From the NCBI GenBank assembly GCA_977020255.1, contig CDROCS010003532.1:1-64000 (forward strand): 64,000 nucleotides of DNA. Direction: 5' to 3'. Source of the stretch: Obrimoposthia wandeli (taxonomy: Eukaryota). Of the stretch, positions 12,631-34,317 are shown one piece after another (the first letter of the stretch is position 1; each line of letters opens with the position of its first letter). Under the pieces are notes generated by a model. The model made no database searches. It was not told where the DNA came from and saw only the letters and a program-made list of their open reading frames with translations. The position numbers and the translations under genes were made by a program.

Positions 12631-13223
12631 ATATATGAGCAAGAGCATTTCCTAGAGAATTCATCAGAAGCAACTGCTCATCAGAGACACAACTGAAGAT
12701 AAGATAAGATAAGAACGTTCATAATGTCATATTCATCCTACTACCAGGAATTTCTTTCAAGGGAATACATGGAATAAAATACTTGCAAAAACCATGTACA
12801 ATTAATATATTATACTTTTATTCCAAAATTATGATATTTGTTACGTATGTTCAACAAATTTCCTTAACTCTTTTCTTGTATATCCACTTGAACTATTCTA
12901 AGTAGCAATAAATACACTATTTGATATTATTACACTTCGGCTGTCGAGGCGACAGTAAAGTGTTTTTGTAACAAATTTCTCAGCAATAATTAATCAGGAT
13001 TAATCAATCTATAAATATAAAAAAATCAATCTATAAATATAAAAAAATCTCACTCAGCCGCTCCAATTTATCTCATAGTTGCCGATCTCACTCAGCTGCT
13101 CCAATTCACCTCGCGGTTGCAAATCAACAAGTGCTCCAATTCACCTTGCAGTTACGGATCGGCAAACTTTTCACTTCGTCCCTGGAATTAGAAATCGGAT
13201 TAGATAGGTGAGAACGTAGCGAG

Positions 13224-13758
13224 GATAAATTGCTTATAAACTAAATTGACTATTTTGAATACGTAACGAAGATAAATTGCTTATAAACTAAATTGACTAT
13301 TTTGAATACGTAACGAAGATAAATTGCTTATAAACTAAATTGACTATTTTGAATACGTAACGAAGATAAATTGCTTATAAACTAAATTGACTATTTTGAA
13401 TACGTAACGAAGATAAATTGCTTATAAACTAAATTGACTATTTTGAATACGTAACGAAGATAAATTGCTTATAAACTAAATTGATTATTTTGAATACGTA
13501 ACGAAGATAAATTGCTTATAAACTAAATTGATTATTTTGAATACGTAACGAAGATAAATTGCTTATAAACTAAATTGACTATTTTGAATACGTAACGAAG
13601 ATAAATTGCTTATAAACTAAATTGACTATTTTGAATACGTAACGAAGATAAATTGCTTATAAACTAAATTGACTATTTTGAATACGTAACAAAGATAAAT
13701 TGCTTATAAACTAAATTGACTATTTTGAATACGTAACGAAGATAAATTGCTTATAAAC
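13224..13758. repeat. 47-bp tandem array (11 full copies + partial) in the element's 3' non-coding region
   Basis: Unit GATAAATTGCTTATAAACTAAATTGACTATTTTGAATACGTAACGAA, nearly identical copies. Confidence 0.95.
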
Positions 13759-13809
13759 TTAGGTGTCATGCAATTGTCAAGGGAGATGAGGTTGAATCAA
13801 TGTTAACTG

Positions 13810-14307
13810 TTAGTTGTTCCTGTCATTTAGGAACAGCGTGACCTGTTCCAGTGGTAGGTCCGGATATGATGGGGTCTGGCCTTCGAACAGGGCCATCTGC
13901 TGGTTGAGACTGAGGTGCGGGTTGGGATGAAATAGGGTTGTGTAGCGCCCGTGGACCCCGCGATTCTGGATCCATGTTTGGCGACCGCGTTGCCATGAGC
14001 GGCAGTCACGGCTTGATCGCCATTTCTCTCGGAGGGAGAGTTTCGCGTCGCGACGACGCGCGATGCATTCGGGGCATTGGCAATGTTCGCCACCAATGCA
14101 GCTGGTGAGCGAACGAGTGTCCTTGTGTCGACCACGACATTGAAGTGTCCACTCCGCGAAGGGAGCACGGCACAACGGACATGTGACGTGGCCTTCGGGT
14201 CGAGTTCGGGCCCATATATAGAGGCACGCCTCGTGAAACTTGTGACGGCAACCGACAGGGGATGCCGATGCCGTCCAAATTTTCTCCAGGCAGACTGAGC
14301 ACTTCAT
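13810..14307 (-). CDS. RING-H2 finger protein 3 (putative E3 ligase), ~165 aa from ATG 14307
   Basis: CSVC-x-CRHKFHEAC-x-W-x-CPLC RING-H2 pattern followed by a second Cys cluster (CQCPEC). Confidence 0.8.
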   Translation of the reverse strand: MKCSVCLEKIWTASASPVGCRHKFHEACLYIWARTRPEGHVTCPLCRAPFAEWTLQCRGRHKDTRSLTSCIGGEHCQCPECIARRRDAKLSLREKWRSSRDCRSWQRGRQTWIQNRGVHGRYTTLFHPNPHLSLNQQMALFEGQTPSYPDLPLEQVTLFLNDRNN

Positions 14308-14660
14308 CTGCACAAGATAATGATTTTTTTTCAACTTGGGGTTCGACTGTTTTCGTCGTTAGTTTATGAAGTTAAAAATTTAGTTTCAAAACGAAACCTT
14401 AGTTTTTTAATCTTACCGAGTTTTGTTCCGATTTTAGGCATGTTTACACATTCATACTAGGCATAAAAAAATTGTCTTTTAGAATTTCAGTATAATAATT
14501 ACAATTTCAATTAAACAACATACATAAAAATGGTAATGGTCATTTTACAGTTTCACAAGATTATACAATTATGATTACAATTATGGTAGCTAATTTATCG
14601 CGGTATGCGATACACAGGGTAGTTCATGATGTCACGTTCAAGTCAGAAAGTTACCTTCGG

Positions 14661-14966
14661 TTATTGCTGGGAGTTGGGCTGGCCTGTGCGTCGCTCCTCC
14701 ACGCAGAACGAGCACCAGCAATCGCAGATAGTTTTCCAACAGTGTACTATGGGTACCACTGCTTGGAGGCTGTCCTGGTTGTACACGTAGTGCACTGATA
14801 AGGTTGCTCTGCACATCGGGCAGGTTGGGTAGTCGAGGGGATTGTTGCTGTTGGCGATGGGAATCCACGTCTCGAGGCATTCGATGTGGAATAGGTGGTC
14901 GCAGTTGTTGGGTTTGGTGTAGAGGTCCACGATGCTCTCGTAGCAGATGGAACATTCTCCAGACAT
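14661..14966 (-). CDS. RING-H2 finger protein 2 (101 aa)
   Basis: CSIC...CDHLFHIECLETW...CPMC plus C-terminal CWKTICDCWCSFC. Confidence 0.85.
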   Translation of the reverse strand: MSGECSICYESIVDLYTKPNNCDHLFHIECLETWIPIANSNNPLDYPTCPMCRATLSVHYVYNQDSLQAVVPIVHCWKTICDCWCSFCVEERRTGQPNSQQ

Positions 14967-15026
14967 TACTGTGAGAGGGTTGATGTTGAATTTGGGCTCG
15001 ATTGAGGACTGGTGATTGTGTGATGT

Positions 15027-15326
15027 TTACACAAAAGTGGTCGGATTTTGTCGTTCTGACAAACAGTAGTAACACCAACACTCTCCGAAATTCTTCCAAC
15101 AGAATACCACCTGTACATATACATCCTCTTGGTTGGGTTCTATCATGATGAACCTTGCGAATTGTCTTCTGCATACAGGGCAACGAGGGTATGTTGGATG
15201 TCCGAACTGTCCATAAGTTCTGATCCATGTTGATAAACATTCCTCGTGGTGTAAATGGTTGCAGGTTTCGGGTCTTGTTCTTCGTTCGGTGAGATCTTCC
15301 AAACATATTGGGCATTCTTCGGACAT
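15027..15326 (-). CDS. RING-H2 finger protein 1 (99 aa)
   Basis: CPIC...CNHLHHEECLSTW...CPVC plus C-terminal CWKNFGECWCYYC; clear paralog of the next ORF. Confidence 0.85.
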   Translation of the reverse strand: MSEECPICLEDLTERRTRPETCNHLHHEECLSTWIRTYGQFGHPTYPRCPVCRRQFARFIMIEPNQEDVYVQVVFCWKNFGECWCYYCLSERQNPTTFV

Positions 15327-15449: not shown

Positions 15450-16841
15450 TCATATCTTGATGGGAGGCGGAGGTAAGGGTCGCAATTCCACTTCCTCCAT
15501 GGTGGGTGTGTTACAGCATCGCAGTCCTTCGCATTTTCGTCGTATTCTTGGGCATACTTGACTGCCTTTCACGCACACGACTGTCAATAGAACCACTGCT
15601 GTTGACACTACGGCCATTCCAATTAGAGCATTGACCGCTGTTACTCTGCTATCTGATGATTGATAATCATACTTCATTTTGTTGTTTGTCGGTTCGAATG
15701 ACATTTCCATTGATTTTGATCGGTTTCCATGTATTATGTCCGATTTTCTAAAAATTCGCGGATTTGGATGTTTAGTTTCTGGTGGAACAGGTATTATTAT
15801 TTTAGATTGGAAATGATGTTTGGGATCTAGTGGGATCGTTCCCCTCACTCTTGTCCTCTTAATAATTGTACTTTGGTTTCTGGAATTGAGCTCTTTTTCT
15901 TTCGCTTCTGTCTTTGTTCTGATCACTTTTGGCTTTTTGGAATGGCGTTTACTTTCGTTTACCTTTGTCTTCTTTTTGACTAGGATTGGTTTTTTGAGAA
16001 TGATTTTCCTTGGTTTGATACTTATACCGGATCTACGAAATCGACGGTTCTGGTATCTTAGAGTTATGTAGAATATTTCACCTGTTATTACCATGATTAT
16101 GGTCGAGGTCTCTGTAGCATTGCTGGGAATTCGGTTACATAGACATTCTGTATCAAAATGTGGAACTAACATTTGGTTTTGGATTTCGAATCTGATTCCG
16201 CCATCTGGATTGGAACACGACACTGTTACTCTGTCAGTTTCTAGCAATCTGAAAAATATTCTAACGGAATTCCATACGGTTTTACGTCGTCTACCTGTGA
16301 TCATAATCCTGTCGACAATTTTCCAGATGCGCTCATCTCTAGGCAATATTAATGACTTTGTTCGGATACTTTGGATAATCCGCTTCCTCTTTGATATCGT
16401 TATCCGTAGGTATAACACTCTTTCATGATAGAATAATATCAGTTTGTAGTAAGGTGTACTTTGGTCGATCTTTATTCTGACCTGTCGGATGACATACAAT
16501 TTCTGATCGATATTGTCGGTTGCTGACGTCTGTAGATGAATGTCTACTACGTGATTTGTTTTTAATAGAGGGATTTCTATGTATAACGCCCGTATTACAT
16601 CTTGTCTCCATTTACTGATCATGATCTCATAACTAGCCTTGGTAGTGGTAATTTGTATGATCAGCATGATTCTGATGATCGTTCGATTCCTAAACTCAGG
16701 AACTTCAATGAAACAACTCAAATTACTCATGTAGTATGGTCTTTCCTCGATATGTTCATATATCGTTGGCTGGTACTCTGGTGCTGGTTCATCTAGGAAT
16801 GGTGGTCTTGGTATACTTGTGTTGAATTTTTGTAAATTCAT
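15450..16841 (-). CDS. 463-aa putative type I membrane protein of unknown function
   Basis: Long ORF starting 40 nt after the polyprotein stop. Signal-like hydrophobic stretch (IIRIMLIIQITTTKA), C-terminal TM (ALIGMAVVSTAVVLLTVVCV), and a Cys/Pro-rich tail ending PLPPPPIKI. Confidence 0.75.
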   Translation of the reverse strand: MNLQKFNTSIPRPPFLDEPAPEYQPTIYEHIEERPYYMSNLSCFIEVPEFRNRTIIRIMLIIQITTTKASYEIMISKWRQDVIRALYIEIPLLKTNHVVDIHLQTSATDNIDQKLYVIRQVRIKIDQSTPYYKLILFYHERVLYLRITISKRKRIIQSIRTKSLILPRDERIWKIVDRIMITGRRRKTVWNSVRIFFRLLETDRVTVSCSNPDGGIRFEIQNQMLVPHFDTECLCNRIPSNATETSTIIMVITGEIFYITLRYQNRRFRRSGISIKPRKIILKKPILVKKKTKVNESKRHSKKPKVIRTKTEAKEKELNSRNQSTIIKRTRVRGTIPLDPKHHFQSKIIIPVPPETKHPNPRIFRKSDIIHGNRSKSMEMSFEPTNNKMKYDYQSSDSRVTAVNALIGMAVVSTAVVLLTVVCVKGSQVCPRIRRKCEGLRCCNTPTMEEVELRPLPPPPIKI

Positions 16842-16880
16842 TTGACCTGTTTGTCTTGCGAGATCATGACGTTTCTTTTT

Positions 16881-19800
16881 TTATCTCAACTCTATCTTTG
16901 TACAACAAAACAAGACGAGTAATATTAATATTATAAATCCAATGATCAGTGCCAGTATTGGATTAGCCAATTCTAGAATACCATAACGTATTGCTGGTAT
17001 CCCTTTACTCTTGATGGTTAATATTTTAAATTTATGTGCACTTTGGTTGGACATGTCACTGAGAAGTACTATTTTAGTTTGTCCAAATATGTAGTCTTCA
17101 CATGTGACAACACTAATTCCATAATGTCCATTAAGTGTTTTCATTTCGGTCGCTGGAACTATACACATTCGTACTGGACATCCTTTTACACACATGATCA
17201 TTACGGCTTTACTGTGGGACGTCTTGATTATTTCTAGGGTGTTGTCTAGATTTCTCAAATGTAAATTATATTCGGATAGTGTCATCAATTCGGCTTTACT
17301 GGTTGGCATGGCTTGTAGTACCAATCCAATTACTACTCCGTAGATCAATCCTTGTGCAACGGTGCACAGGGCCTTGACTGTCCTTTTGCAAAGGGTTTTA
17401 ATTATCATTCGTTTGAGAGATATCTGTTTCTGGTTGGATCGTTTTGTTGTCTGTTGTTGTTTTGACATTTCTTCGATTCCAGTTTTTCCGATAATCAACT
17501 GTACCTGTTTACCTTGTATCATCAACTTTCCGAATCCATTTTTGGCGGACAAGCATGTTTTATGTCCTTCCATCGTTTCAATTATCACTCTCTTACTTCC
17601 ATACTCACGTGTTTTGATGACATCGCCGTCGAATATATACGTCGGTCCTTTTGTATCAGCATCTTTTTGTATTTCCTTTACAATTCGTTTTCTTCGCTTG
17701 TATCCGGCGAATGTTGTTGATATTCGGTCAAGTGCGCGCTGTCGGTCAGCTTCGTAATCCATTCGGAATTGATTCAGTATTCTGTTTTGTGGGTAAAATA
17801 TCGCTTCATTTACTATGTTGTCCTCGATCCTTTCGTCTAGATACACAAGTACTTTGTTCGTCGGTCCATTTGGTCTTTTCATCTTTACAAACTGAAATCT
17901 TTTACTGTCGGTTCTCATAGATCGGAGACATTTTCGGATGATCCACACATCAATTAATCCTAACAACACTAATAGCATCATCAGTGCCGGTGTATGGTAC
18001 TGTATGATGTAGTTGTGGATTTCTTTGAACCATGAACTATTTCCGTGGTTGGAGCCTATCTCTTGTGCTCCCGTTATCGGCATTAGACAACTTAACAAGC
18101 CTATCGCTAGCAATCTTTGGTATTGAAAGCTGGGCACTGTTGTTGTAGCTTCATTTGTTTCTCGTTGTTGCTTCCTCTTTTCAGCGTACTTCTCTATTTC
18201 TCGAACGAGTAACGGTTTGAATTTCGTATCTGGTCTATTCTGTTTGATGTAGACCATCGCTTCTTCTGGTGTATGACCATGGTACTCTACCAACAAGGAT
18301 ACACCTATGGTAGGCGCTAACATCGTACCTTTTTTCTGATATATCAGAACGCCGTTTCCTTCTGTGACTTCGGCTTGGATGGTTTGGGTCAATTTCATCA
18401 GATGTTGTTGTGCATCATTTATTTCTCGATTGGAAGCATGTATGTATCGAGTGGTGTCGTCTTCAGTATTTTGACACAGACTGATTATCTCGTTTCCGAC
18501 TTCAACAATATTAATTACTCGGTTGATACTGTGGAACTTTAATCCAGCAGTATCTATATCTCCTGGATAACATAAAAATACTTTTGGCATTATCTGCGTG
18601 ATTTTGTCGACTCCGGCTAAGAATAACCCGGTCAATGATAATGCTTGGAGGAAATTCTTTTCCTTTGGATCCTCAGGGATGTCGTCCATCCGTCTTTGTT
18701 CTTGCAACATAAGTTGGTAATTTGACAACTGTCCCAAAAAATTAAGATTTGGGTTAGCAATACTTCTTCTCTCCTGTAGGTATTTCAGTGCTTCTAGTAC
18801 CTGCATTCGTCTAGTCTTTATTAGATATGCTAATACTAGGGTTGCTGATCGAGAGATTCCTTTCTGGCAATGTACCAACACTTTTCCTTGGTTTCGGAGT
18901 TCTCTGTGAAGTATTTCGTTTGTTTCTACGAACCATTCGAGAAGATTAGCGTCCATTGAGTCTTTTACTCTTAATGTCATAGCTCTGATTGTCTGGCATT
19001 GTGATTTGTGATTCATTGTAACATTGATCACGTATGTTATCCCTTGTTCCAACAGTTTCTTTTCATCTGTTGCATCTTCCACATTTCCGAGGTATAACTT
19101 ATCTGGAATGATCTCACTCATTGGTTGCATTAATTCTGACTCTTCAAGTTTTAGTCTTTCTAATCTCTTCTCTATCTGTTCGTCGATGTTAGTTAGTTTT
19201 GCCAGTTTCTTTCCTCTCAGCATTCGTATTGCTGGAGAGATATTCATCTTTGTCTCTGATGTCTGTTCCTTTGTTGAGTCTTCTTCCGACTCGGTTTCTT
19301 CTGCAGATTTAATTCGTCTTTCTTGTATATTCTGTTTCACGAATTCTATGTTTTGTCTTTTTCTGCTCTCTTTAGCGAATTCAACCTCCATGGTTTTTCC
19401 GAATCGCTCTATTATGTTATCTTCGGATTCTGTTGATTCTGTATCGTTACTTTCAGGTTCGCTGTCTTGACTAGACTCGCTCGAAGGGTATTCTGGTATG
19501 TCTGTCTGAACTGAAATTAATGAAGGGGTTATAATAATTGGATTGACTGCCCCTGCGTATTTGTGAATCGGATACGGTATTACACTATCTTTAAGTATCT
19601 CAACTTGGAACTGTGCTCCATAGCACATGACAATTGTTTCCAATTTACCCATGATGGACAATCCATCAAAATAGGTAACATTCAGCTTAGATATCGGTGT
19701 TTTCGCATAATTAATTAAATTTACTCGTATCTCGGTTGATGACGGCCATCGATTTTTTAGTAAAATTATAATTTCGTCGTTTATCGATGTAATTACACTT

Positions 19801-21695
19801 GGCGCGGATGATACTATTTCAGCATGATATTTCGGTTGAATTGAGGTTGTCACTTGTTCTCGGATCATATTGATTCTTTGTGGTTTTTTATTTTTAGCTT
19901 CCCACTTCTGGTATCCGCTGTCAATGCGTAACTCTGCCGTTGCTTTGATGATTTTATTGTTGGTCACTTCCGGTTGGGTTGGCGAATGAAATCCTTCTAT
20001 TACGCTCAACCTTACAGATACTTCCGTTTGATCTGTGTCTAACCGGTGAGATTCCGGTATGCAACATACAATTGTCTTTCCGTCAAAGTATTTGGTGTCC
20101 ATCTGACAAATTATCTTTTCAGTGTCTGCGTCGACTAAATGGACTCTCATTAGGTCTCTTTTCCCATGTGAATTACGTAATACCATTATTACATCGTGGT
20201 ATTCTTGTTTGAGTCTTTTTGGTGTACCATGCAGTATGTGACCACCGGCCGGTTCCTTTTCTTCCTGACTGGCTAGTCCTGCTTCAGTACTGTCATAGTT
20301 CTGCCATGCAACTATGTTTGGTGTCAATGTGATTTCGATTATCACTTTCTCAGTCGTAAACACATTGGAATTTTGATGAAGCGCTGCGACTAGTGTATTT
20401 CCGTCGTAGTATGACACTCTAAGTTCGCACAGAAATTCGTTTGTCAGTGCATCTTTCACAATGACGTCTTTCGCCACATCTGTTGGTTGTGTTTTTTCGA
20501 AAACAACTATTATCTCTTCATCTTCTTCCAATATCTCTTGTGGTGCGATGTGTCGGATTACTTCCTTTTCCTCTTGGTGCTTCATTCTGAGCATACCAAT
20601 TCTCGCTGGTTTTTCCTCGCTACCACTCGTCATCATGTTTATGTAGTTCCGATCACTTACCATTCGTGTAAGTTTAATGGTATTGGTATTCGGCTTCAAT
20701 TTCTGTGATCTTAACTCATATCGTGATGCATTATCTTTATTTGGTACTAATTTACATCGATTTGCATGTACAATCATCGGTTCCTTGTTCCGATTCTCCT
20801 CGTTGATTACTTTCAAATTTGTTGAGGTTGTCTGGATCACCTTGTATGGTCCTTTGTATGGTCTATGAAGTTTAAACGATAGACCTGGTTCGATGACTGG
20901 ATAAAATATCATCACTTGATCTCCGACTCTAAATTCATGTGGTTTTGCCTTCTTGTCATATTGTTCCTTGTAACCTTCTTGATTGAATTTCAACTTCAAT
21001 CCAGCTTTGGTCCAAGCATCCTGCAATCTTTCCTTCATGACGACAATGTATTGTTCAGTTTCTAGATACTGAGATGTTGGCTCGGTCCACTTCAGATCCA
21101 TCGGCATATTGTTCTGTCTGAGATACATCAGATAGAATGGTGTGTGACCCGTCGCCTCTCGAACTGAGTTCCTGTAAGCATATAAACATGAAGGTAAATA
21201 TTTATCCCAATCCTCTTGCTTGTCTGAGCAATAGGATTGTACCATCATACATAAAGTTTTATTAAACCTTTCTACTAGACCATCTGTTTGTGGGTGATAT
21301 GGTGAAGTTTGTAACTTCATGATTCCGAATATCTTCGATACTGCTTTTATGACTTCTCCAGTGAAGTTCTTACCTTGATCCGTTAACAACTTTCTAGGCA
21401 CTCCGTATCGAAATATTATCTCTTCCACTAAGATTTGCGCTATTGTTTCAGCTTTCTGGTTCTGCATGGGATATGCTTCTACCCATCTTGTCATGTAATC
21501 CGTAAATACTATGACGTACTTGTTTCCTTTACTTGATTCTCTCAATGGTCCCAATATATCCATTGCTGTGAATTCCATTGGTGCCAAAGGAACTGGCATC
21601 GGTTTCAGTGGAACTTTAGTACGAGTTCCAGTGTCTTTTCTGGTTAAACATACTACATTGTTTACACCATTGTGTAATGTCGTCTTCCATACCAT
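16881..21695 (-). CDS. pol: Integrase core + GPY/F, 3 IPT/TIG-like repeats, DUSP, pseudo-DUSP and membrane modules (C-terminal part of the polyprotein; joined to pol across a frameshift at ~21654)
   Basis: MDILGP / TDQG / ERFNKTL integrase catalytic motifs; KGPY; HCQKGISRS at 18846-18872; several hydrophobic segments near the C-terminus. Confidence 0.9.
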   Translation of the reverse strand: MVWKTTLHNGVNNVVCLTRKDTGTRTKVPLKPMPVPLAPMEFTAMDILGPLRESSKGNKYVIVFTDYMTRWVEAYPMQNQKAETIAQILVEEIIFRYGVPRKLLTDQGKNFTGEVIKAVSKIFGIMKLQTSPYHPQTDGLVERFNKTLCMMVQSYCSDKQEDWDKYLPSCLYAYRNSVREATGHTPFYLMYLRQNNMPMDLKWTEPTSQYLETEQYIVVMKERLQDAWTKAGLKLKFNQEGYKEQYDKKAKPHEFRVGDQVMIFYPVIEPGLSFKLHRPYKGPYKVIQTTSTNLKVINEENRNKEPMIVHANRCKLVPNKDNASRYELRSQKLKPNTNTIKLTRMVSDRNYINMMTSGSEEKPARIGMLRMKHQEEKEVIRHIAPQEILEEDEEIIVVFEKTQPTDVAKDVIVKDALTNEFLCELRVSYYDGNTLVAALHQNSNVFTTEKVIIEITLTPNIVAWQNYDSTEAGLASQEEKEPAGGHILHGTPKRLKQEYHDVIMVLRNSHGKRDLMRVHLVDADTEKIICQMDTKYFDGKTIVCCIPESHRLDTDQTEVSVRLSVIEGFHSPTQPEVTNNKIIKATAELRIDSGYQKWEAKNKKPQRINMIREQVTTSIQPKYHAEIVSSAPSVITSINDEIIILLKNRWPSSTEIRVNLINYAKTPISKLNVTYFDGLSIMGKLETIVMCYGAQFQVEILKDSVIPYPIHKYAGAVNPIIITPSLISVQTDIPEYPSSESSQDSEPESNDTESTESEDNIIERFGKTMEVEFAKESRKRQNIEFVKQNIQERRIKSAEETESEEDSTKEQTSETKMNISPAIRMLRGKKLAKLTNIDEQIEKRLERLKLEESELMQPMSEIIPDKLYLGNVEDATDEKKLLEQGITYVINVTMNHKSQCQTIRAMTLRVKDSMDANLLEWFVETNEILHRELRNQGKVLVHCQKGISRSATLVLAYLIKTRRMQVLEALKYLQERRSIANPNLNFLGQLSNYQLMLQEQRRMDDIPEDPKEKNFLQALSLTGLFLAGVDKITQIMPKVFLCYPGDIDTAGLKFHSINRVINIVEVGNEIISLCQNTEDDTTRYIHASNREINDAQQHLMKLTQTIQAEVTEGNGVLIYQKKGTMLAPTIGVSLLVEYHGHTPEEAMVYIKQNRPDTKFKPLLVREIEKYAEKRKQQRETNEATTTVPSFQYQRLLAIGLLSCLMPITGAQEIGSNHGNSSWFKEIHNYIIQYHTPALMMLLVLLGLIDVWIIRKCLRSMRTDSKRFQFVKMKRPNGPTNKVLVYLDERIEDNIVNEAIFYPQNRILNQFRMDYEADRQRALDRISTTFAGYKRRKRIVKEIQKDADTKGPTYIFDGDVIKTREYGSKRVIIETMEGHKTCLSAKNGFGKLMIQGKQVQLIIGKTGIEEMSKQQQTTKRSNQKQISLKRMIIKTLCKRTVKALCTVAQGLIYGVVIGLVLQAMPTSKAELMTLSEYNLHLRNLDNTLEIIKTSHSKAVMIMCVKGCPVRMCIVPATEMKTLNGHYGISVVTCEDYIFGQTKIVLLSDMSNQSAHKFKILTIKSKGIPAIRYGILELANPILALIIGFIILILLVLFCCTKIELR

Positions 21696-24129: not shown

Positions 24130-27100
24130 TCACTGTGCTCCATTTATATTTCCCATATGGTATATTGTATTTATCGAATTATTACACTCTGTCGGTCCAC
24201 TTCCTTTGTTTGGATAGTGAAATCTAATATTTCTCACTTGTCGATCTATTATTCGTCGACAAATCGGACATGATACCATTTCCTTCGCACATCTCCGACA
24301 TGTTCTTACATGTCCGCATGGTAAAAAGGCAACTTCTATTTTGTTGACCATGCAAACTGCGCATTCCGGATCTTCTAGTACGTATTCTAGTTCATTTATG
24401 TACTCTTTCTCTTTTGTTTCAATTGTACTGTCATCTTTATCTTTCAGTAATTCAAAAATTGATCCGTATCCATTTCGCGTAGTTTTTATTTTTAATTCTA
24501 CCAAATCTCTGATTCTTTCTGCTTCTTTTGGATATAACCTTCTCACGAATGACACTACCGGTGTGTCTTGTTGAGCCAAAATCTCTTTCCGTGTGATTTG
24601 GTATTCGATTATACATTCGGTTTTCTGTTCTTTTTGCTTTATTTTGTTTTTTAACATACAAAACTCGCAAAATTCATGATGTAAAATTTTCTTAGGTAAC
24701 TCAAGAGTATATCTGTCGATAATTCGTTCTTTTTTACACTTGTGGCATTTAATTACGTCTTTACCATCCTTTTTTATAGCAAAAAGTCCCTTTTTTGCCA
24801 ATTTTTTAAGTCTTGGATCTTCGAAAGTTATTTCTCGATATTGTTCGTCACATTCGTTCACTTCTCGCATGACTTCGAATATATCTTCAATTCGGCTATT
24901 TGTTATTACTCTACCTACTATTAGAGCTGATTTTCCTTTTGGAATCTCGTCACTGTTATCGAAATCGGGTGCTTTTCCCATTTGGATTTCTGGTACGTTT
25001 GAAGTTTTCAGTTTCAAAAGAAATGGACAATTTGGTGCATCTCTTTTATGACGTTTCATTGGGTTTTCATTGTTTTCCCACTCTCTAAACTCTACTCTAC
25101 ACCATACGCATCGTACTTCTTCCTCAGAACCATAACTATTTGTCGCGTTTAACATTTGTAAACCTGTTCTTGCCATTTTACGTGCCATTTCTTTTGAATA
25201 GTACAGTTCTAATATATTTCGTCTTTTTTTCTCGAATCTCATGGGATCCTTTTCTGACAGATTCACATATGTTATTTTCCTCCTCGTCATCTCTTGTGGT
25301 CCGAGGTTTACGTTTTTGTAGTGAAGTATCGACTTTACTAGCGCTTCCTGTTTTTTGTCTTGGTACGAATTTCCCATACGGAACGTAGTGTATTTTTCCT
25401 TTTCGACTATAGGTCCTCTCAACATTTTTATCTCTCTCACTGAACTGTCATTCTTATAACTCTTGTTGTTTGGTAATATAATTATTCCTTCAAACATTCT
25501 TATTACGTCCATCCCAATCATGACTGGACTACCGCAATCTGTTAATATTCTAGCATTTAACTGCAATGCTCTCCCATCGATATTCAACGAACATTTCAGT
25601 GTTCCTTCCGACACTACATCTGTACCATTCACGTTAACAAATGTCTGTTTTCTAGGACATACTTCTCTTAATTCTTTTGATGACAAGATTTCTTTACTCA
25701 GTACTGATACTGCGGATCCAGTATCAACTTCGGCAAGATATTCTCTTCCGTTCAATGTTACTGCTACTTGTGGTGGAGCATTTGGATTCTCATTTGGATT
25801 CTCATTTGATATCCTAGACTTCAGAATTCTTCTGGAATTATCTTTTTTGTCTTTTTCCTCTGCTTGTGGAATCTCACTGTAGCTCACTTTAGGCCATCTT
25901 ATCATTAAGATGCCTCTCTTGAACTTTTCCTTCTCTTCCTTTAGTTCCTTCATTGGATATAGGTTTAACGCCACTTCTTCCTTGTCTGGTAACGGAATCT
26001 TTGGTTTTCCTGGTATCTTTGCATATACTCCTGGGCTATCATTATCGTCGTCGTTGTCGTCTCGATAATTTCTTGGGTCTCGCATCATGGTTCTCGTTTG
26101 ATGTTGTTCCTTCTTGAGGGCTCGCAACTCGTTCTCGTGATGATGGTGCATTAGATATTTTGCTAAAAATGGAAAACATCCAATTATAAGTTGCCAGGTG
26201 ATTCCGGTTATCCTGTATAAACTATACGTAGACAACACCTGGGCTATAATTACCTGCACAAATTTAATTATAACATAAATACCTATGATACCCGAAAATA
26301 GTTGTCCTAAAACAAGGAATTTCCCCCACATCTTTCTAAGTGTCTGATGTGCTGCTTCCTTGAAATGACTTGGCGATAATAACATATCAAAATTCGCATA
26401 TCTAGCTCCTGGCGGTAATGCTCGATGTACCATCTCCGTAAGTACTCTGGCTCTTTTTACTGGAAACATTATTTCGTTCCATGCCGCTTTTAAGTCTTTT
26501 TCATTGTACAATCCTGCGTTCTCCATATTTTCCACCGCTTCGGATTTCATTTTACCTTTGAGATTCGTCATTTTTATCATCGCTGGGGTTTTCGTTGGCT
26601 TTCGATCAGGTAACATTATCCATAGATCATTCGTCATCTGATATTCAGATGCCATTATATTAGAGCAGCTGATTTCTTTAGTTGGAGTGTCTTTTGGAAG
26701 TATTATTCTCGTGATTGGTTCAACAAAGAGTTCTTGTAAATTATACGTTACTGCCAATTCACTCGTACATCGGTCTGTTTTTCTCAACTGTACTTCTACT
26801 TTATTACACTTGTAAGTATACAATACTTCTCCCATGGTTTTAGCAAATACTCCTTCATCCAAGGGTAATAATGGTGCTACCATGTCTGGATTCGTAATAG
26901 CTAATGCTAACTTTGTTCTTACGATCTCTTTGTTTAGCTGGCAATCTCTTTCGATCATCATCCGATATAACTGTTCCATTTGCATCAATCCTTTATGATA
27001 ATAAAAATCAATTTTATTATTAAAATACGTGTGTAGCTGCATATCTCTAGGTTTTAGCTTGGTTTCTGCCAATGCTATTGTTTCTTTGGACAAAACTATT

Positions 27101-30100
27101 CCAGGATAGTTTGTAGTACTAACAGTCATTCCGCATCGCGCTTTGTTTCTCTTTTTAATAAATATCAATCCTTCTTCTATTGATGTTGCCATTAACAGTG
27201 TAGGTGTCTTTGTCATTGGAATTGGTCTTGTTTCATTGAGCAATCCTTTTCCAACTTTATTATACAGGAACCCTTCTCCATCTTTATTATACAGGAATCC
27301 TTTTATTTTATTAAAGCTAATCTCTTTCAAAAATACTAAAGAGCATTGCTTCGGATTCACGTGATACACAATTGTGGATTCACCTGTAAAACAAGATGCA
27401 TCTGTCATTTTACATTCTGGATACTTCATCATTCGTTGTGTCTTTTTATCAAAATTGGCAGTCCATGATTTTAATTCAATTTTGTAAGTTACGTCCATTA
27501 CTAACTCTGTTACTTTGGTTCCACGCACGTTTTTTGTTCCTCCGTCACAAGATCCATCAGCCCATCGTTGTCCAACTCTCGTGACTGTTTCGTATCGTCT
27601 CACTCCAATTTTTACAACAGGTTTGTAATTCTTGTCTATTTCTATTGTTCCTGTACGAAATGCGTCTTCGCAATCTCTCGGAAAAACCTTATGTGCTTTG
27701 TACGGTGTGGTAGGTGTGATTTCCGACATAAAACTTCTATGGCCACAATAGAATTCGTGATAACTTGAATGAACTGAACATTCTTTCACTTCTACTTGTA
27801 CTTTATCAACATCCTGATACACAAAGTAGTTTTCAACACCTTTAACTTCTAATTTTGACTGTTGTGATTCTGGACAGTCTTCGCTGTCAAGCAGTGAATA
27901 CTTTTGTCCCATCTTTGGTATGCTACAGTCGTATGCTATCAATCCTGATGCCTGTTGCATTCCCATGAACATTACTAACATCATCATCATCATTGTTGTG
28001 GACATATTTGGTTGATTGTTTCTTTCTTTTGGACGGTATTGTTTATTTTCTCTTTGACGATTCTCATGACATTGTTCGTCATCGTCTTCGTTCATTTCCA
28101 CAATGGTTTTAGCGTAGTCACTTAATTTTGCCCAACCTCCGTTTTCGTCAATTCGTCTTTGTAACACATTCTCGATCAAATACATCGCTTCATTTATTCC
28201 TTGTTTGACTTCGTGAGGTTGGCTCGTTCGTTCCGTCAATTGGAAACATAGATATGTGATTGCTGTAATTAACTTTTTATTTGTAGTCTGGCTTCCACAT
28301 AATCTCGCTAAAACTTCACCGTCATAAAATCTATCTATCGATGCATGGTATACATGATTCGCGGTCATTCTCTTTACTGCAGACATCTGTGATCTAACTG
28401 CTTTAGTCAAATTGTCTGTTATATCGGTTGTTTCATCTCTGTACATTTTGAACAACTTCGGCTTCACTTGCCTGAGAATTCCCGTAAGTATATCTTTACT
28501 ACTTGGAGCTTCTGAATTCATATCACCTCTGATATCTTCATTCCTCTCTGCACTATACTGCTCTAATGACGCTGCTAACTGTCCAATGCTTAGATGTCTC
28601 TCTTCATCAGTTTGTGGTGCAGTTAGAACATTTCGTAATATACTTCCGTCTTTTCTAGGTCTTCCAGGTCCTCTTCGAAAATACTGATACTCAGTTTGAT
28701 TCTCTCCTGGATCATACGGTTCACCATTATACTGTATCTCTTGACTTGGTCCTTCTTCATGGCCAATCTCTTCATTTTGTCGCATCATCTGCTCTGCTTG
28801 TCTATCTTTGTATGCAGCATGCCAAATTGGTGAATCTAAATCTACAATTTCGGAGATTTCGTCTTCTCCTACTAGTTGGGTTACGTTTTCGTTTTGTCTC
28901 ACTTGGTTAGCTGTATTCGCGACTTCATCTTGTCTGATTTGAATTATATCTGGTTCTGGTGGTACCTCGACCACTGGAGTTGTCAACTCATTTTCTAAAT
29001 TCATGTCTTGTAATTCTGCTACGTACGGTTCTGGTGTGGATGTCTTGTTCCAAGCTTCAGCTACATCGTTATCTCCGCTTTCGCTTGAACTGTCTAAAAT
29101 TTCTATAGGCGATTTTATCATTTCTAATGCAGTGTTTAATATCTCCGTTAATCCTTCATTATCTACTAACTCTTGACGTCCTACAGTGATGATATCAATT
29201 TTTTCTTCTAATTCGTTTCCTATCGGATATCCACACTCGACTGGTACGTCCTCATCATCTAGTGATCTCCCTTTATAATGGAACAACATATTCATTCCAT
29301 AAATTTCAAGTTTCTCGGCCAACTTTTTTCGAATAGTTTTCATTGTCTGATACACGTTAAGTTTTTCATGTATTATCTGTCCGGAAATTAATCGAAGCGA
29401 AATTTTCATCGTTCCCTTTTGGTTTGATCTCTGTACGTAACGACCATATCCTTTCAATAATCCTCGTGGTATTTCTTTGTAACCCAAGTTATCATGACTA
29501 AGTTTAACCAATTCTGCTCGCACTTCTTCCAATCTGTGCACTTTAATTGTTTGCAATTTGGCCAAAACTTCTGGAGCTTCACTCGTTTCATCTAACGGTT
29601 GATTCAACGTCTCCTTAGCTTCACTAATTATCTTTTTTACATTTTCCATACTCGTAGCATTTCTTGCTGCTTCTACATGATCAGTCATAGGTTGTGCGTT
29701 ACACGTTTTCTCTATTGGTGTCTCATACGCTTCTAGTATTTGATTCATTAAATCATTCATCTCTTCTCTCGAGTGTAGACTTTTTTCTTGTTTCGACAAC
29801 GTAGATGAATTCGCCATCTTTGTATGTGGTGAATCTTTAATTATTCCCAACATTCGTTCAAATTTACTATCACTATCTTCAAAATCTATTTCGCGTCGAA
29901 GTTCGGTCTCGCGATTCCTATCGCTGTCATCGTTTACATAACTAAAATTTCCTTTCGGTTTCGGCGAACTCTCACGACTATTCGTCTTGTCAACATTATT
30001 ATTATTATATCTACCGGAATTATTATATCTCTCAGCTCCTTGCTGTCCTACGTAATTATTGTATCTCTCAGCTCCTTGCTGTCTGTCTGCATAATTATTG

Positions 30101-31662
30101 TATCTACCTGGTGACTGTTGTCTATCTGTATACTGATTATTCGGTCTCCATGGCTGTGGAGTATATCCACCACCTCTATTCCATGGCGGAGGTGAATTAT
30201 ATCCTCTATAATTATTTCCAAAATTATTATTACCGAAATTATTATTTCCAAATCTGTTAGTTCCGAACTCCTTACTTCTCGTACAATCTCTCGAATAGTG
30301 ACCCATTTGTTTACACGTGTAACACATTATTCTCCCTCGAATATCTATCTTATTTTGTTCATCTTCGAACTGCACTCGACGACTATTCTGTCTATTATCA
30401 TAGCGTCCTCTAAAATCATTTCTTCGGAAATTCGATTCAAAACCGCTTCCTCGATTATTGAATCTTCCGTCACTACTTCCTGTATTATTCCCAAATCGAG
30501 AGTCACTTCGCTCTCCTCTGTTTGCGCTATAATTCCTATCGTCTCCTCTCCAAGGTTGGCGATTTCCTGAATTATCTCTATTAAATCTATTCCTGGAATC
30601 ATCTCTATTTCTATTCCACGAATCATTACTATTTCTACCTCTTGAATCATCTCGATTCCTGTTCCAAGACTCACTATTATTTCTACCTCTCGAATCATCT
30701 CGATTCCTACTTCGGAAATTATCTCTGTTTCCGTTACTGGATTCATCTACTTTTTCAAACTTATTTTGTCCGTAATTTCGATTCTGAAAATTACTCGGTT
30801 CTGTTTTATTCACAAATACCTTTGTCTTATCGTCGTCACCTGCAGTCATTGCGTAAATTGCCAATGCTGCGTTATTTTTTATATTTTTCTCAATCTCTCT
30901 CGCCTTTCGCAAGGCGTTATCAAAATCATTTGTATCCGATACTGCTAATAACACTTTAATATCCTTTTTCAATCCTCCTCTAAATATATCTAACAAAACT
31001 TCTGCCATTTCATTTTGGTTCCACTCATTTTCCGCTACTTGTGCTTCTTGAGCCACAAGACTACCGTCCTGATTTCTCATTATTCTTCTTGGGTACGCTC
31101 TTGCGGCCAAGGTTCTCAACACATACGCGTATTCATTCACGCCTTCGTCATGTTTCTGTTTCCGTTCTCTCATGATTCGCTTATTTACTTTTGCTAAGTC
31201 TCCCAATACTAATTTTCCAATAAAAGCATTTTCCAACGTTGGCCAGTCTAAACGTTCTGCTTCTGTCAAGTGTTTATACACTTCAAGTGCTAATCCGGTT
31301 AAGTGTGCCTGCACTCGGACACATTTTTCTTTATCGTTCCATCCTTGAACATCTGCACAACTTGAATATTCTGCGAGGAAGTCACAAATACTTTCCTCAT
31401 CTCCTTTAAACTTTGTAATCTGCAATGATCCTGAAAAGTTGGGTCTCAACGTCGCATTTAAGGCTTGTTCCAACTGTTCGGCATTCATGTCACCTACATT
31501 ATTTCCTGCATTATTATCTACTTGAGCTCCTGGGTGAGCCATATTTTCAGCTATATCCTCTTCAACTATTTCTTCAATATTATTCAATTGAAAGTCCTCA
31601 ATCACTACTGGATTGGCAATTTCAAATTCTTCTGGGTTTATGTCACCAAATAATTCAGTCAA
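24130..31662 (-). CDS. gag: 2510-aa polyprotein: Gag-CCHC, ubiquitin-like domain, AT-hook, Bcl-2-like domain, chuvirus/gB-type glycoprotein, protease 1, BIR, degenerate BIR, RING
   Basis: CYTCKQMGHYSRDC (30283-30324); Ubl-like 29175-29409; RRGPGRPRK 28651-28677; IDENGGW ~28122-28150; signal + LIAYDC 27925-28005; TM ~26230-26325; DTG 25717-25725; BIR 25015-25240; C3HC4 RING 24255-24363. The listed start is TTG; the first ATG is at 31542. Confidence 0.92.
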   Translation of the reverse strand: MTELFGDINPEEFEIANPVVIEDFQLNNIEEIVEEDIAENMAHPGAQVDNNAGNNVGDMNAEQLEQALNATLRPNFSGSLQITKFKGDEESICDFLAEYSSCADVQGWNDKEKCVRVQAHLTGLALEVYKHLTEAERLDWPTLENAFIGKLVLGDLAKVNKRIMRERKQKHDEGVNEYAYVLRTLAARAYPRRIMRNQDGSLVAQEAQVAENEWNQNEMAEVLLDIFRGGLKKDIKVLLAVSDTNDFDNALRKAREIEKNIKNNAALAIYAMTAGDDDKTKVFVNKTEPSNFQNRNYGQNKFEKVDESSNGNRDNFRSRNRDDSRGRNNSESWNRNRDDSRGRNSNDSWNRNRDDSRNRFNRDNSGNRQPWRGDDRNYSANRGERSDSRFGNNTGSSDGRFNNRGSGFESNFRRNDFRGRYDNRQNSRRVQFEDEQNKIDIRGRIMCYTCKQMGHYSRDCTRSKEFGTNRFGNNNFGNNNFGNNYRGYNSPPPWNRGGGYTPQPWRPNNQYTDRQQSPGRYNNYADRQQGAERYNNYVGQQGAERYNNSGRYNNNNVDKTNSRESSPKPKGNFSYVNDDSDRNRETELRREIDFEDSDSKFERMLGIIKDSPHTKMANSSTLSKQEKSLHSREEMNDLMNQILEAYETPIEKTCNAQPMTDHVEAARNATSMENVKKIISEAKETLNQPLDETSEAPEVLAKLQTIKVHRLEEVRAELVKLSHDNLGYKEIPRGLLKGYGRYVQRSNQKGTMKISLRLISGQIIHEKLNVYQTMKTIRKKLAEKLEIYGMNMLFHYKGRSLDDEDVPVECGYPIGNELEEKIDIITVGRQELVDNEGLTEILNTALEMIKSPIEILDSSSESGDNDVAEAWNKTSTPEPYVAELQDMNLENELTTPVVEVPPEPDIIQIRQDEVANTANQVRQNENVTQLVGEDEISEIVDLDSPIWHAAYKDRQAEQMMRQNEEIGHEEGPSQEIQYNGEPYDPGENQTEYQYFRRGPGRPRKDGSILRNVLTAPQTDEERHLSIGQLAASLEQYSAERNEDIRGDMNSEAPSSKDILTGILRQVKPKLFKMYRDETTDITDNLTKAVRSQMSAVKRMTANHVYHASIDRFYDGEVLARLCGSQTTNKKLITAITYLCFQLTERTSQPHEVKQGINEAMYLIENVLQRRIDENGGWAKLSDYAKTIVEMNEDDDEQCHENRQRENKQYRPKERNNQPNMSTTMMMMMLVMFMGMQQASGLIAYDCSIPKMGQKYSLLDSEDCPESQQSKLEVKGVENYFVYQDVDKVQVEVKECSVHSSYHEFYCGHRSFMSEITPTTPYKAHKVFPRDCEDAFRTGTIEIDKNYKPVVKIGVRRYETVTRVGQRWADGSCDGGTKNVRGTKVTELVMDVTYKIELKSWTANFDKKTQRMMKYPECKMTDASCFTGESTIVYHVNPKQCSLVFLKEISFNKIKGFLYNKDGEGFLYNKVGKGLLNETRPIPMTKTPTLLMATSIEEGLIFIKKRNKARCGMTVSTTNYPGIVLSKETIALAETKLKPRDMQLHTYFNNKIDFYYHKGLMQMEQLYRMMIERDCQLNKEIVRTKLALAITNPDMVAPLLPLDEGVFAKTMGEVLYTYKCNKVEVQLRKTDRCTSELAVTYNLQELFVEPITRIILPKDTPTKEISCSNIMASEYQMTNDLWIMLPDRKPTKTPAMIKMTNLKGKMKSEAVENMENAGLYNEKDLKAAWNEIMFPVKRARVLTEMVHRALPPGARYANFDMLLSPSHFKEAAHQTLRKMWGKFLVLGQLFSGIIGIYVIIKFVQVIIAQVLSTYSLYRITGITWQLIIGCFPFLAKYLMHHHHENELRALKKEQHQTRTMMRDPRNYRDDNDDDNDSPGVYAKIPGKPKIPLPDKEEVALNLYPMKELKEEKEKFKRGILMIRWPKVSYSEIPQAEEKDKKDNSRRILKSRISNENPNENPNAPPQVAVTLNGREYLAEVDTGSAVSVLSKEILSSKELREVCPRKQTFVNVNGTDVVSEGTLKCSLNIDGRALQLNARILTDCGSPVMIGMDVIRMFEGIIILPNNKSYKNDSSVREIKMLRGPIVEKEKYTTFRMGNSYQDKKQEALVKSILHYKNVNLGPQEMTRRKITYVNLSEKDPMRFEKKRRNILELYYSKEMARKMARTGLQMLNATNSYGSEEEVRCVWCRVEFREWENNENPMKRHKRDAPNCPFLLKLKTSNVPEIQMGKAPDFDNSDEIPKGKSALIVGRVITNSRIEDIFEVMREVNECDEQYREITFEDPRLKKLAKKGLFAIKKDGKDVIKCHKCKKERIIDRYTLELPKKILHHEFCEFCMLKNKIKQKEQKTECIIEYQITRKEILAQQDTPVVSFVRRLYPKEAERIRDLVELKIKTTRNGYGSIFELLKDKDDSTIETKEKEYINELEYVLEDPECAVCMVNKIEVAFLPCGHVRTCRRCAKEMVSCPICRRIIDRQVRNIRFHYPNKGSGPTECNNSINTIYHMGNINGAQ

Positions 31663-32026
31663 ATAAAAGCTGTCGGTTGAAACCGCTGATTGATTAACGT
31701 CTCTTTCTGATACGTTTTCTTCGACTCTAGTCTTTTCTGTTACTTTGTTATCTGTTTGGGAACCTGTTCAATTCGGTTAACTTTATTATTATTTATCTCT
31801 TCCTGGGGAATCTGACTTTGTCTTCTAGTATTATACGCGGGTCCTTTTCTATTATCCGTCGTCTTATCAATTATGTATTCGTTTACGATATCAATTTACT
31901 TATTATTTTATCTTATTTCACAATTCTTATTTTACGATTTCTTATCTCTTTAATTAGTTCGAGGACACGTCTCCCGACTTAACCTATTCAATTAATTACT
32001 TCGAGTATCAATCCACTCGATTCTCA

Positions 32027-32545
32027 ACTTTATCAAATTCTTAACTTCGAGGAACAAATCTACCCGATTTCTCAAAACTTATCAAATTCTTAACTTCGAG
32101 GAACAAATCTACCCGATTTCTCAAAACTTATCAAATTCTTAACTTCGAGGAACAAATCTACTCGATTTCTCAAAACTTATCAAATTCTCAACTTCGAGGA
32201 ACAAATCTACTCGATTTCTCAAAACTTATCTCAATTTACTTATATCTTCTTCTGAAACTTATTCTAAATTTGCTTATATCTTCTTCTGAAACTTATTCTC
32301 AATTGTCTATATTCTTCTGCTGAAACTTATTCTCAATTTGTCTGAAACTTATTCTCAATTTACTTATATTCTTCTGCTGAAACTTATTCTCAATTTATCT
32401 GAAACTTATTCTCAATTTATCTGAAACTTATTCTCAATTTATCTGAACTTATTCTATTTATCTGAAACTTATTCTCAATTTATCTGAAACTTATTCTATT
32501 TATCTGAAACTTATTCTCAATTTATCTGCAACTTATTCTATGTGA
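32027..32545. repeat. Tandem arrays in the element's 5' leader: 49-bp x4, then ~20-22-bp CTGAAACTTATTCTCAATTTAT x~12
   Basis: Directly visible repeats between the PBS and gag. Confidence 0.85.
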
Positions 32546-32566
32546 ATTCGCTGTGTCCGACGAGCT

Positions 32567-32584
32567 ATCCTCACTCGGGCACCA
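32567..32584 (-). promoter_or_regulatory. Primer-binding site TGGTGCCCGAGTGAGGAT
   Basis: An 18-nt sequence complementary to a canonical tRNA 3' end (...CCTCA CTCGGGC A CCA), 8 nt inside the LTR. It resembles elongator tRNA-Met; identity unconfirmed. Confidence 0.75.
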
Positions 32585-32592
32585 CTTTAATA

Positions 32593-34317
32593 TGTTGGGG
32601 TTTCTATACGAGACTTGTATAGATCCTCTTGTGTGCGGAGGGCCCCAACGTGAGTTCGAATAGAAGCAGGTCTTAAAGTTGGTCGTGGCCTACTTAGTGT
32701 TATGGTTGCCTATCTCTATTGCTTATCTGAAGGTGTTTGCTTTTCGATGTCTCTTAGTCTGAAGGGTTTAGAACAGTACTTTTAATGTAGGAAATCGTTT
32801 ATTGTTAACACACTAGGCTAATGAACAATACGTTTACGTACGTATTTTCTAAAAAGTTGTAGTAAAATTCCTAAGACTTTCGTAAGTCTCTGCACAAGTG
32901 AGGATGAACCACGTATCGATTTTACGGTTATGTTTGTTTTAGTCGCTAGAGTCTTTACTCTAAAAATAGGGATTGATTTTAGAGAGCCGTTGCTCTAAAA
33001 TTTAAGTAGCCTAAAAAGTCTGAAGGGTTTGTTTCCAAAATGTCTTCACGACAACAGATTACCTTATTTCAAATTTTCTTATGATTACAAAATTCCAATT
33101 TGTCTTCGCGACAACAAATTACTATTACAAAACTTCAATTTGTCTTCACGACAACAATTATTATTACAAAACTTCAATTTGTCTTCACGACAACAAATTA
33201 CTTCATTACGACAACAATTACTATTACAATTAAATGTCTTCACGACAACAAATTATTATTACAAAACTTAAATTTGTCTTCACGACAACAAATTATTATT
33301 ACAAACTTCAATTCGTCTTCACGACAACAATTACTATTACAAAACTTCAATTTGTCTTCACGACAACAATTACTATTACAAAACTTAAATTTGTCTTCAC
33401 GACACAGCTTACTATATTTCAGATTTTCTTACGATTACAAAATTCCTTTATTTCAAATTCTTTTACGATTACAAAGATTACTTTATTTCAAATTTTCTTA
33501 CGATTACAATTCTTCTGGCTCACCTTCCAAATCTGTAGATAATTTCCATCTCGTTCGGATCCTAGTTCCGGCGCTCCTTGTCTCTTCGGAACAGTGACTT
33601 CCTGTCCGCCGATTCGTGGTTTACGCCCTTGACAGTTGGCGTGTCTCGTTTCTGTTCTGTATGTTTGTGTTAATGATTTTCTTTTCTAACTGTTTTCTTA
33701 CCTCTGCTTGGCGTTCGGTCTCGATCAGGAATGATATTGTTTCTGCCGAGAATTCTCTTGTTAATGGCTTGATTTGGGCTCGTTTCCGTGGATCGGAATA
33801 AGATTGTTTCTGCCGAGAATTCTCTTTTTAATGGCTTGATTTGGGTTCGTTTGATAGGCTGATTTCCGTAGACTTATATAGTCTATTTCTCTGCTGATTT
33901 CCCCGGTGACGTGGTCTGTCAATCAATCTTCTGGTTCGCTGCGGAAAGTATTTATTTTAGCTAAATTAATTAATTTTCTCACTTCAGGAACAGCTGTCGG
34001 GACGTGGCTGCTGACGTCGACTGGATTTCGGTTTGTACTTCTTCTTTTAAATTTCCTTTTCCTAATTAATCTTCTTTCTTGTAATGACTTATCTTCAGAG
34101 CTATATCTTTTTTGGGCCCTTTTCTTAAGTCTAACTTCAATATAAACATACACATTTCACACGACCTTCGTGGTCCTCTAATATTCAATTTTCCTTTTAC
34201 TTTAATATTTTACTTCTAATTTTCAATTTTATTTAATTTTAACCTTGTTTTCAAGGATTTTCATTTTAGTATAAATTCGACTTAATTATTTAATTTTAAC
34301 AAAACCCAATCCTAACA
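32593..34317 (-). mobile_element. 5' LTR of the giant element (1725 bp)
   Basis: TGTT...AACA ends, adjacent PBS, both ends homologous to the solo LTRs; AATAAA at 32798-32803. Confidence 0.9.
33040..33400. repeat. ~39-bp tandem array inside 5' LTR, ~9 copies
   Basis: Unit CTTCACGACAACAATTACTATTACAAAACTTCAATTTGT. Confidence 0.85.

Follow-up and report, generated by a model that had tools for sequence, protein, structure and literature searches.

A decayed Burro-like Ty3/gypsy element of Obrimoposthia wandeli and the conserved accessory cargo of its family

Introduction

A 64,000-nucleotide stretch of the Obrimoposthia wandeli genome (assembly GCA_977020255.1, contig CDROCS010003532.1, positions 1 to 64,000; hereafter the window) carries a giant long terminal repeat (LTR) retrotransposon. 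This element is probably one defective copy from a Burro-like Gag-Env-Pol family that was active recently. The polyprotein of the family would be cut into replication proteins, a fusogen and accessory proteins, and the RING-H2 genes would be expressed from spliced mRNAs. The family is a young, high-copy and recently active member of Ty3/gypsy; purifying selection acts on its cargo, which is found again in three further subfamilies. The anti-apoptotic, enveloped and giant design is already known from Burro. Apparently new variant features are a phosphatase pair, a second protease, predicted IPT-fold repeats, additional predicted membrane modules and RING genes that are likely expressed by splicing.

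A young family encoding one polyprotein

In a search of the genome, DNA probes from the env, dual-specificity phosphatase (DUSP) and RING regions each found at least 40 copies at 91-99% identity. A DSPc profile matched the genome at least 150 times, all 150 scored matches being full-length, and the 20 matches that were fetched all lay inside the element. Retrotransposition was recent, since LTR ends are 97.5-100% identical in seven sibling pairs and target duplications of exactly 4 bp flank four of the six pairs with both flanks read. Gag with a CCHC knuckle, protease, reverse transcriptase (RT), RNase H and integrase (IN) follow each other in gypsy order, with DTG and YIDD motifs, and the family has TG...CA LTRs, a tRNA primer site and a target-site duplication. 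The Gag/protease/RT/RNase H/IN set of the original prediction, drawn from the sequence before any database search, is matched throughout in Pfam. Complete siblings reach about 20-25 kb by arithmetic from their positions. Among the copies, LTR length ranges from about 1.6 to 4.2 kb, with internal tandem arrays varying by subfamily and ends alike (window 32593-34317 and siblings). Four copies (L002, L016, L149 and L188) are non-autonomous derivatives, with large internal deletions and both ends or the 3' cargo kept.

The window copy extends from 13760 to 34317 on the minus strand (20.6 kb) and is 3'-truncated and decayed, without a 3' LTR. A minus-strand LTR element had been correctly recognised, but its end had been set at 13050 and its length above 21 kb. 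Sibling matches stop at 13760-13773 while the siblings run on for about 250 bp into their 3' LTR; the copy is thus truncated, and 13050-13759 consists of unrelated tandem repeats. Behind the 5' LTR and primer-binding site, the minus strand holds five successive long frames (31767-15450), then three short frames for RING proteins. The coding region is broken by three internal stops and one frameshift, all private to this copy: when 13 sibling copies were read stretch by stretch, the frame was open across the four breaks in 13/13, 12/12, 11/12 and 7/7 covering stretches. Programmed read-through or frameshifting at these points was rejected on the same grounds. The family therefore encodes one polyprotein, a single frame of about 5,360 codons, beside three RING-H2 open reading frames (ORFs). 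Open frames of 4,335 and 4,645 amino acids (aa) occur among the copies, and the frame end at 15453, with the family stop at 15450-15452, is shared by the window and six sibling stretches. The single polyprotein and the second protease had both been overlooked in the original prediction.

A tRNA-Met pattern built on the primer site found 53 genome matches, against none for the control, and ARAGORN called seven tRNA-Met genes in one locus. The tRNA-Met-like genes stand in tandem arrays with a spacing of about 284 bp (G000:C2252 and C2837), the seven being those confirmed by ARAGORN. An LTR at 7852-9578 was considered as the missing 3' LTR of the window copy and rejected, as it has its own target duplication and is 78-87% identical.

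Selection on the cargo

The ratio of nonsynonymous to synonymous change (dN/dS) was taken from pairwise Nei-Gojobori counts among natural copies (14 pieces of subfamily A, 7 of B and 6 of C), and is descriptive only because the copy pairs are not independent. In Pol, it is 0.08-0.11 for RT and 0.07-0.11 for IN. The front of the polyprotein gives 0.11-0.18 for the ubiquitin-like (UBL) domain, 0.14-0.16 for the Bcl-2-like domain and 0.19-0.24 for Env. Both proteases lie at 0.05-0.26, and the inhibitor of apoptosis (IAP) module at 0.08-0.18 for RING, 0.19-0.38 for BIR2 and 0.44-0.51 for BIR1. Beyond the integrase, values are 0.10-0.21 for the repeats, 0.09-0.23 for DUSP, 0.07-0.16 for pseudo-DUSP and 0.11-0.50 for the C-terminal modules; RING-H2 ORFs a, b and c give 0.47-0.64, 0.16-0.25 and 0.15-0.26. 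The cargo as a whole thus spans 0.07-0.64, and shifted-frame and non-coding controls 0.75-6.8 (one cell undefined).

The same cargo order is found in subfamily B (seven copies, protein identity about 85-98%, RING c about 60%), in subfamily C (about 75-90%) and in the decayed subfamily D (about 45-75%).

Phosphatases, repeats and predicted membrane modules behind the integrase

The DUSP and pseudo-DUSP of the original prediction are borne out by DSPc matches (4e-40 over two stretches). The catalytic loop HCQKGISR, which fits the HCxxGxxR signature and predicts catalytic activity, is present in 33/34 copies. The pseudo-phosphatase, searched alone, gives E 2.4e-6 in Pfam and is devoid of both the Cys and the Arg in all 27 alignment rows. 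Among solved structures, the best sequence matches of the DUSP are DUSP10, 4, 16 and 1 (E about 1e-22 to 1e-20), which are cellular MAP-kinase phosphatases and not viral VH1. The VH1-type likeness once proposed was not upheld, and likeness to large DNA viruses is thus one of analogy. While the catalytic domain resembles that of cellular MAP-kinase phosphatases, no rhodanese docking domain was detected, and the enzyme shares its polyprotein with a dead copy as its partner. When relatives of the cargo behind the integrase were sought in protein searches, cellular DUSPs alone came up.

Three repeats precede the phosphatases, with a common YFDG core and about 19% identity. They had been called IPT/TIG-like, and searches of Pfam and of PDB sequences gave no relevant match to them; a fold match was obtained for repeat 2 only. 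AlphaFold modelled the repeats from a single sequence with a pLDDT (its confidence score) of 33, and repeat 2 from a 23-row alignment with a pLDDT of 71. IPT/TIG or Rel-dimerisation chains make up 16 of the 24 top fold matches of the repeat 2 model (Z 5.5-6.5, root-mean-square deviation about 3), the matching chains being those of Met, plexins, RON, NF-kB, NFAT/TonEBP, EBF and BCAP DBB.

Several membrane proteins had been anticipated, and hydropathy and alignments agree with this for Env and three predicted C-terminal modules. Four internal hydrophobic segments end in a small-x-small motif kept across subfamilies, and behind each come an ectodomain and a transmembrane helix. The last ectodomain matched Neurexophilin weakly (E 0.007-0.015); the match was absent from two sibling sequences and was not accepted. 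Tyrosine motifs, PEY and YEHI-like, are conserved between subfamilies (PEY in 19/20) in a loop predicted to be cytosolic (window 16730-16800); they are possible sorting or signalling motifs.

Front of the polyprotein, proteases and Pol

Gag is matched by Retrotrans_gag (E 0.0056, segment searched alone) and zf-CCHC (5e-5) in Pfam. The ubiquitin-like domain proposed behind it is supported, though more weakly, and the AT-hook, a motif read directly in the sequence, is unchanged in 51/58 copies. For the fusion glycoprotein, the Pfam family Monjiviricetes_fusion (PF24664) gives a match at E 9e-94. PDB sequence searches with env returned nothing relevant, and a protein search found no protein of 4,455-5,000 aa with the env region, which is weak evidence.

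The Bcl-2-like domain reaches E 0.072 against Pfam Bcl-2 (segment searched alone), and E 0.001 when its profile is compared with seven host Bcl-2-family frames, BH1 and BH2 being in register. A BH2-like GGW is present, but the BH1 NWGR is replaced in every alignment row that covers BH1. The likeness first noticed thus stands while the canonical BH1 does not, and we keep the label Bcl-2-like without placing the domain in the anti-apoptotic Bcl-2 family. The suggestion that apoptosis is blocked by two routes is accordingly unproven.

The two proteases flank the IAP, and their DTG motif is kept in 52/53 copies for protease 1 and in 25/27 for protease 2. A BIR-BIR-RING arrangement had been read in the IAP, and Pfam concurs (BIR 4e-11, RING 2e-11), with a weaker second BIR at 0.008 (segment searched alone). 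The module has a zinc-binding BIR and a C3HC4 RING, BIR1 ligands are intact in most copies, and the module matches cIAP, XIAP and DIAP1. A conserved spacer of about 100 aa occupies the place of the Burro dUTPase-like domain, with dN/dS of 0.07-0.13 and no Pfam match. No named Burro protein figures among 91 Pol matches. The nearest is P0159, an Env-PR-RT protein 58% identical over RT-RNase H; it is an unnamed or mislabelled metagenome protein of a related element, with one protease and no IAP. Another such protein, P0174, has RT-IN with a different C-terminal extension.

RING-H2 genes and predicted splicing

All three RING-H2 mini-genes of the original prediction have zf-RING_2 matches (5e-10 to 5e-8). 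A splice-acceptor-like YAG stands 0-2 nt upstream of the RING start in 64/65 related copies, including rows at 36-48% identity, compared with 13/127 at internal ATG controls. Most LTRs contain a donor-like site placed downstream of a TATA-like one. These features suggest that accessory mRNAs may be spliced in the manner of complex retroviruses. Complex retroviruses such as foamy viruses and lentiviruses express spliced accessory genes, and the likeness extends to small ORFs before the 3' LTR behind acceptor-like sites and to the donor-like site in the LTR. The present element differs in belonging to Ty3/gypsy and in that its splicing is predicted.

Table 1. Coordinates of the features in the window.
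Feature	Position	Strand	Remarks
Solo LTR, sister subfamily B	7852..9578	-	own 4-bp target duplication
Non-element DNA	13047..13759	.	47-bp and 38-bp tandem arrays in place of the siblings' ~250 bp and 3' LTR
RING-H2 ORF c	13810..14307	-	zf-RING_2; YAG upstream
RING-H2 ORF b	14661..14966	-	zf-RING_2; YAG upstream
RING-H2 ORF a	15027..15326	-	zf-RING_2; YAG upstream
C-terminal region	15453..18125	-	three predicted modules of signal-like segment, ectodomain and transmembrane helix, no known family; copy-specific stop 16881-16883
Pseudo-phosphatase	18168..18620	-	without catalytic Cys and Arg
Dual-specificity phosphatase	18693..19130	-	intact HCxxGxSR loop; Pfam DSPc
Three ~95-aa repeats	19533..20570	-	predicted IPT/TIG-like Ig fold; AlphaFold model and fold matches
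Spacer, RT (YIDD), RNase H, integrase	20733..23778	-	copy-specific frameshift near 21650-21700
Aspartic protease 2 (DTG)	23782..24129	-	Pfam match; bounded by two copy-specific stops
IAP module	24223..25212	-	BIR, degenerate BIR, RING; Pfam and sequence matches
Aspartic protease 1 (DTG)	25468..25782	-	Pfam match
Env	26068..28005	-	internal signal-peptide-like segment, gB/Monjiviricetes-type fusion glycoprotein, transmembrane helix
Bcl-2-like domain	28078..28515	-	degenerate BH1; directly before the Env signal-like segment
AT-hook motif	28651..28677	-	seen in the sequence
Ubiquitin-like domain	29173..29427	-	Pfam ubiquitin E 0.0045 (segment searched alone)
Gag	30280..31542	-	first Met 31542; capsid-like domain; one CCHC knuckle
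Primer-binding site	32567..32584	-	complementary to host tRNA-Met(CAT)
5' LTR (TG...CA)	32593..34317	-	TATA-like site 33880, donor-like AG|GTGAG 33525, internal tandem-repeat array

Relationship to Burro

Giant Burro gypsy elements with extra domains are known, as the original prediction stated: Burro1/GYPSM1 and Burro2-4 of Schmidtea mediterranea and a Burro-like element of Dugesia tigrina have been described (PMC6431247 section 7). They carry one frame of 4,873 or 5,140 aa with Gag, a Ubi/SUMO-like domain, BCL2, an in-frame mononegavirus-like Env, protease, BIR and a dUTPase-like domain, and both the provirus idea and a 'tinkering with apoptosis and ubiquitination' were already stated there (PMC6431247 section 7). 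Our family is likewise a giant gypsy LTR element with tandem repeats, Gag-CCHC, RT-RNase H-IN and accessory ORFs, in which a frame of about 5,000 aa places Env between gag and pol and includes UBL, BCL2-like (modest) and BIR domains. Judged on this layout, it likely belongs to the Burro group; the AT-rich animal genome of 1.35 Gb, the layout and the likeness in env also point to a probable planarian host, as for the known members.

Our family measures about 20-25 kb instead of over 30 kb, two proteases flank its IAP, and behind the integrase it has IPT-fold repeats, the DUSP pair, three membrane modules and three RING-H2 ORFs; none of these features is named for Burro in PMC6431247 section 7. 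The window copy is not Burro1/GYPSM1, since it has no MATH_TRAF_C or ankyrin match in Pfam and one CCHC knuckle in place of three; Smc matches are also absent. The architecture is therefore novel in part: the Gag-UBL-BCL2-Env-PR-BIR frame was in print, whereas the second protease and the DUSP, IPT-fold, membrane-protein and RING-H2 cargo were not found in the literature covered. No retrotransposon-borne DUSP came up in the literature searched, although Grohme 2018, Lee 2026, Repbase, figures and supplements may describe one. The four conserved internal signal-peptide-like segments and the YAG before the RING starts also appear to be new.

Other reports touch on single parts of this design. The BIR and RING of Burro1 (B-IAP, credited to Lee et al. 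2026, Dev Cell) are reported, second-hand and in the available part of PMC13465017, to protect stem cells from apoptosis; the present IAP also combines BIR and RING on an element and fits that role, and is set apart from this second-hand description by a second, degenerate BIR. The part of PMC13524379 at hand lists GAG-ENV-POL errantiviruses of HSV/gB type in Platyhelminthes, with which our family has its gene order in common, and six S. mediterranea env rows show, by eye, a common cysteine spacing and short motifs. The main text of that source contains no 'Burro', 'phosphatase', 'apoptosis', 'splice' or 'accessory'. BURRO1 expression is under PIWI control according to the available portion of PMC8532177, and those of PMC11410931 and bioRxiv 2025.12.11.693146 hold nothing on element domains.

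Proposed mechanism and alternatives

In the reading that we favour, the polyprotein would be cleaved by its own two proteases and the host signal peptidase, yielding proteins for replication, a fusogen for the envelope and accessory proteins directed at the host. It would pass through the endoplasmic reticulum (ER) membrane several times, and at each of the four signal-like segments a type I membrane protein would begin, Env being one of the four. After such processing, the Bcl-2-like domain and the phosphatase pair would stay anchored to the membrane on its cytosolic side, and both proteases, the IAP, Pol and the IPT repeats would be cytosolic. The IAP, freed from its place between the two proteases, would restrain caspases, as reported for Burro1 B-IAP. 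The MAP-kinase-phosphatase-like enzyme would damp MAP-kinase stress signalling, with its dead copy as a regulator or substrate trap, and the cytosolic IPT-fold repeats could act as interaction or dimerisation modules. Three E3 ligases of small size would come from splicing of the LTR donor to three acceptors. On balance, an expressing cell would likely be kept alive and its alarm responses silent during replication of the element and, perhaps, its passage from cell to cell.

A number of points weigh against this reading. Expression, splicing, cleavage, particles and activities are here predictions from the DNA sequence. The polypurine tract, the usual plus-strand primer site in Ty3/gypsy, is typical and not defining; a canonical one is missing before the 3' LTR in 14/14 junctions (L002, L007, L010, L018, L023, L024, L029, L032, L033, L068, L070, L073, L074 and L078), the longest purine run being 4-7 nt in the last 60 nt. 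A conserved non-purine motif (G run, T run, C run) sits there instead, so plus-strand priming may be atypical. Each of the 13 examined siblings carries breaks of its own. Bcl-2 support is modest, as E 0.07 and 0.001 are accompanied by no Bcl-2 match in PDB sequence searches and an uninformative ESM Atlas search. The predicted likeness of repeat 2 is one of fold and not of function, its middling Z staying under 8, and the signal peptides are predictions from hydropathy and motif conservation. The 64 copies with YAG are related and not independent events, and the donor motif, found in 34/37 LTRs and also in 141/500 shuffles, is weak alone. To the non-independence of the copy pairs behind dN/dS is added a loose constraint on BIR1, RING a and the last ectodomain (dN/dS about 0.2-0.6).

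Going further, the family might be a true infectious enveloped invertebrate retrovirus, whose cargo would help it to infect further cells or hosts and to evade immunity, much as large DNA viruses do. The full-length fusogen, with a signal-like segment, a transmembrane helix and dN/dS of about 0.2, and three more predicted surface proteins are consistent with this, as are the provirus hypothesis in print for Burro (PMC6431247 section 7) and a related gB-type env in S. mediterranea elements (available part of PMC13524379). However, particles and transmission are here predictions from the genes, and the conservation of env shows use, not extracellular infectivity. Moreover, a single Gag-Env-Pol frame gives equal amounts of Gag, Env and Pol, unlike typical retroviruses. 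We regard infectivity as a tentative possibility that falls short of an even chance. Its fullest form is rather doubtful: an infectious Ty3/gypsy flatworm virus with complex-retrovirus expression, a four-fold ER-threaded polyprotein, a fusogen and three surface proteins, a tethered MAPK phosphatase with its pseudo-enzyme, NF-kB/NFAT-like IPT decoys and three E3 ligases from alternative splicing out of the LTR. If this fullest form is true, a retroelement would own a set of accessory genes as large as that of a large DNA virus.

It also seems rather unlikely that the cargo is kept mainly for the benefit of the host, as a stem-cell mutualism of the kind reported for Burro1, and not for the spread of the element. 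Burro1 B-IAP is reported to protect stem cells and to aid regeneration (second-hand, in the available part of PMC13465017). Yet selection is seen here among many dispersed, recently inserted copies, as expected under element-level selection, whereas a gene domesticated by the host would sit at a single fixed locus or at a few; both kinds of benefit may hold together. Lastly, neutral passengers or a one-off chimera are largely refuted and highly improbable: the window copy and all 13 examined siblings are indeed broken, but siblings carry the cargo under purifying selection, with DUSP, pseudo-DUSP, UBL and repeats near RT/IN in dN/dS and far below controls, the same order in four subfamilies and the catalytic motif in 33/34 copies.

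Other features of the window

Frames at 53826-54662 (-), 62864-63385 (+) and 58080-58619 (+) look by eye like remnants of what we take to be a Polinton/Maverick packaging ATPase and polymerase, and inverted blocks at 43002-45146 and 59513-62715 were noted with them. An LTR-like piece at 55416-57103 is 72-80% identical to the element LTR, and one best match leads to subfamily C. Two 70%-identical copies of another repeat lie at 10408-10773 and 34990-35325, with a piece related to 55456-55604.

Concluding remarks

As this family shows, selection can maintain in Burro-like elements a MAP-kinase-type phosphatase with a pseudo-phosphatase, IPT-fold modules, additional membrane proteins and E3 ligases encoded separately. 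ERK/JNK/p38 signalling governs wound response and regeneration. If expressed, this cargo, whose phosphatase is present at least 150 times in a single genome, could influence such signalling.

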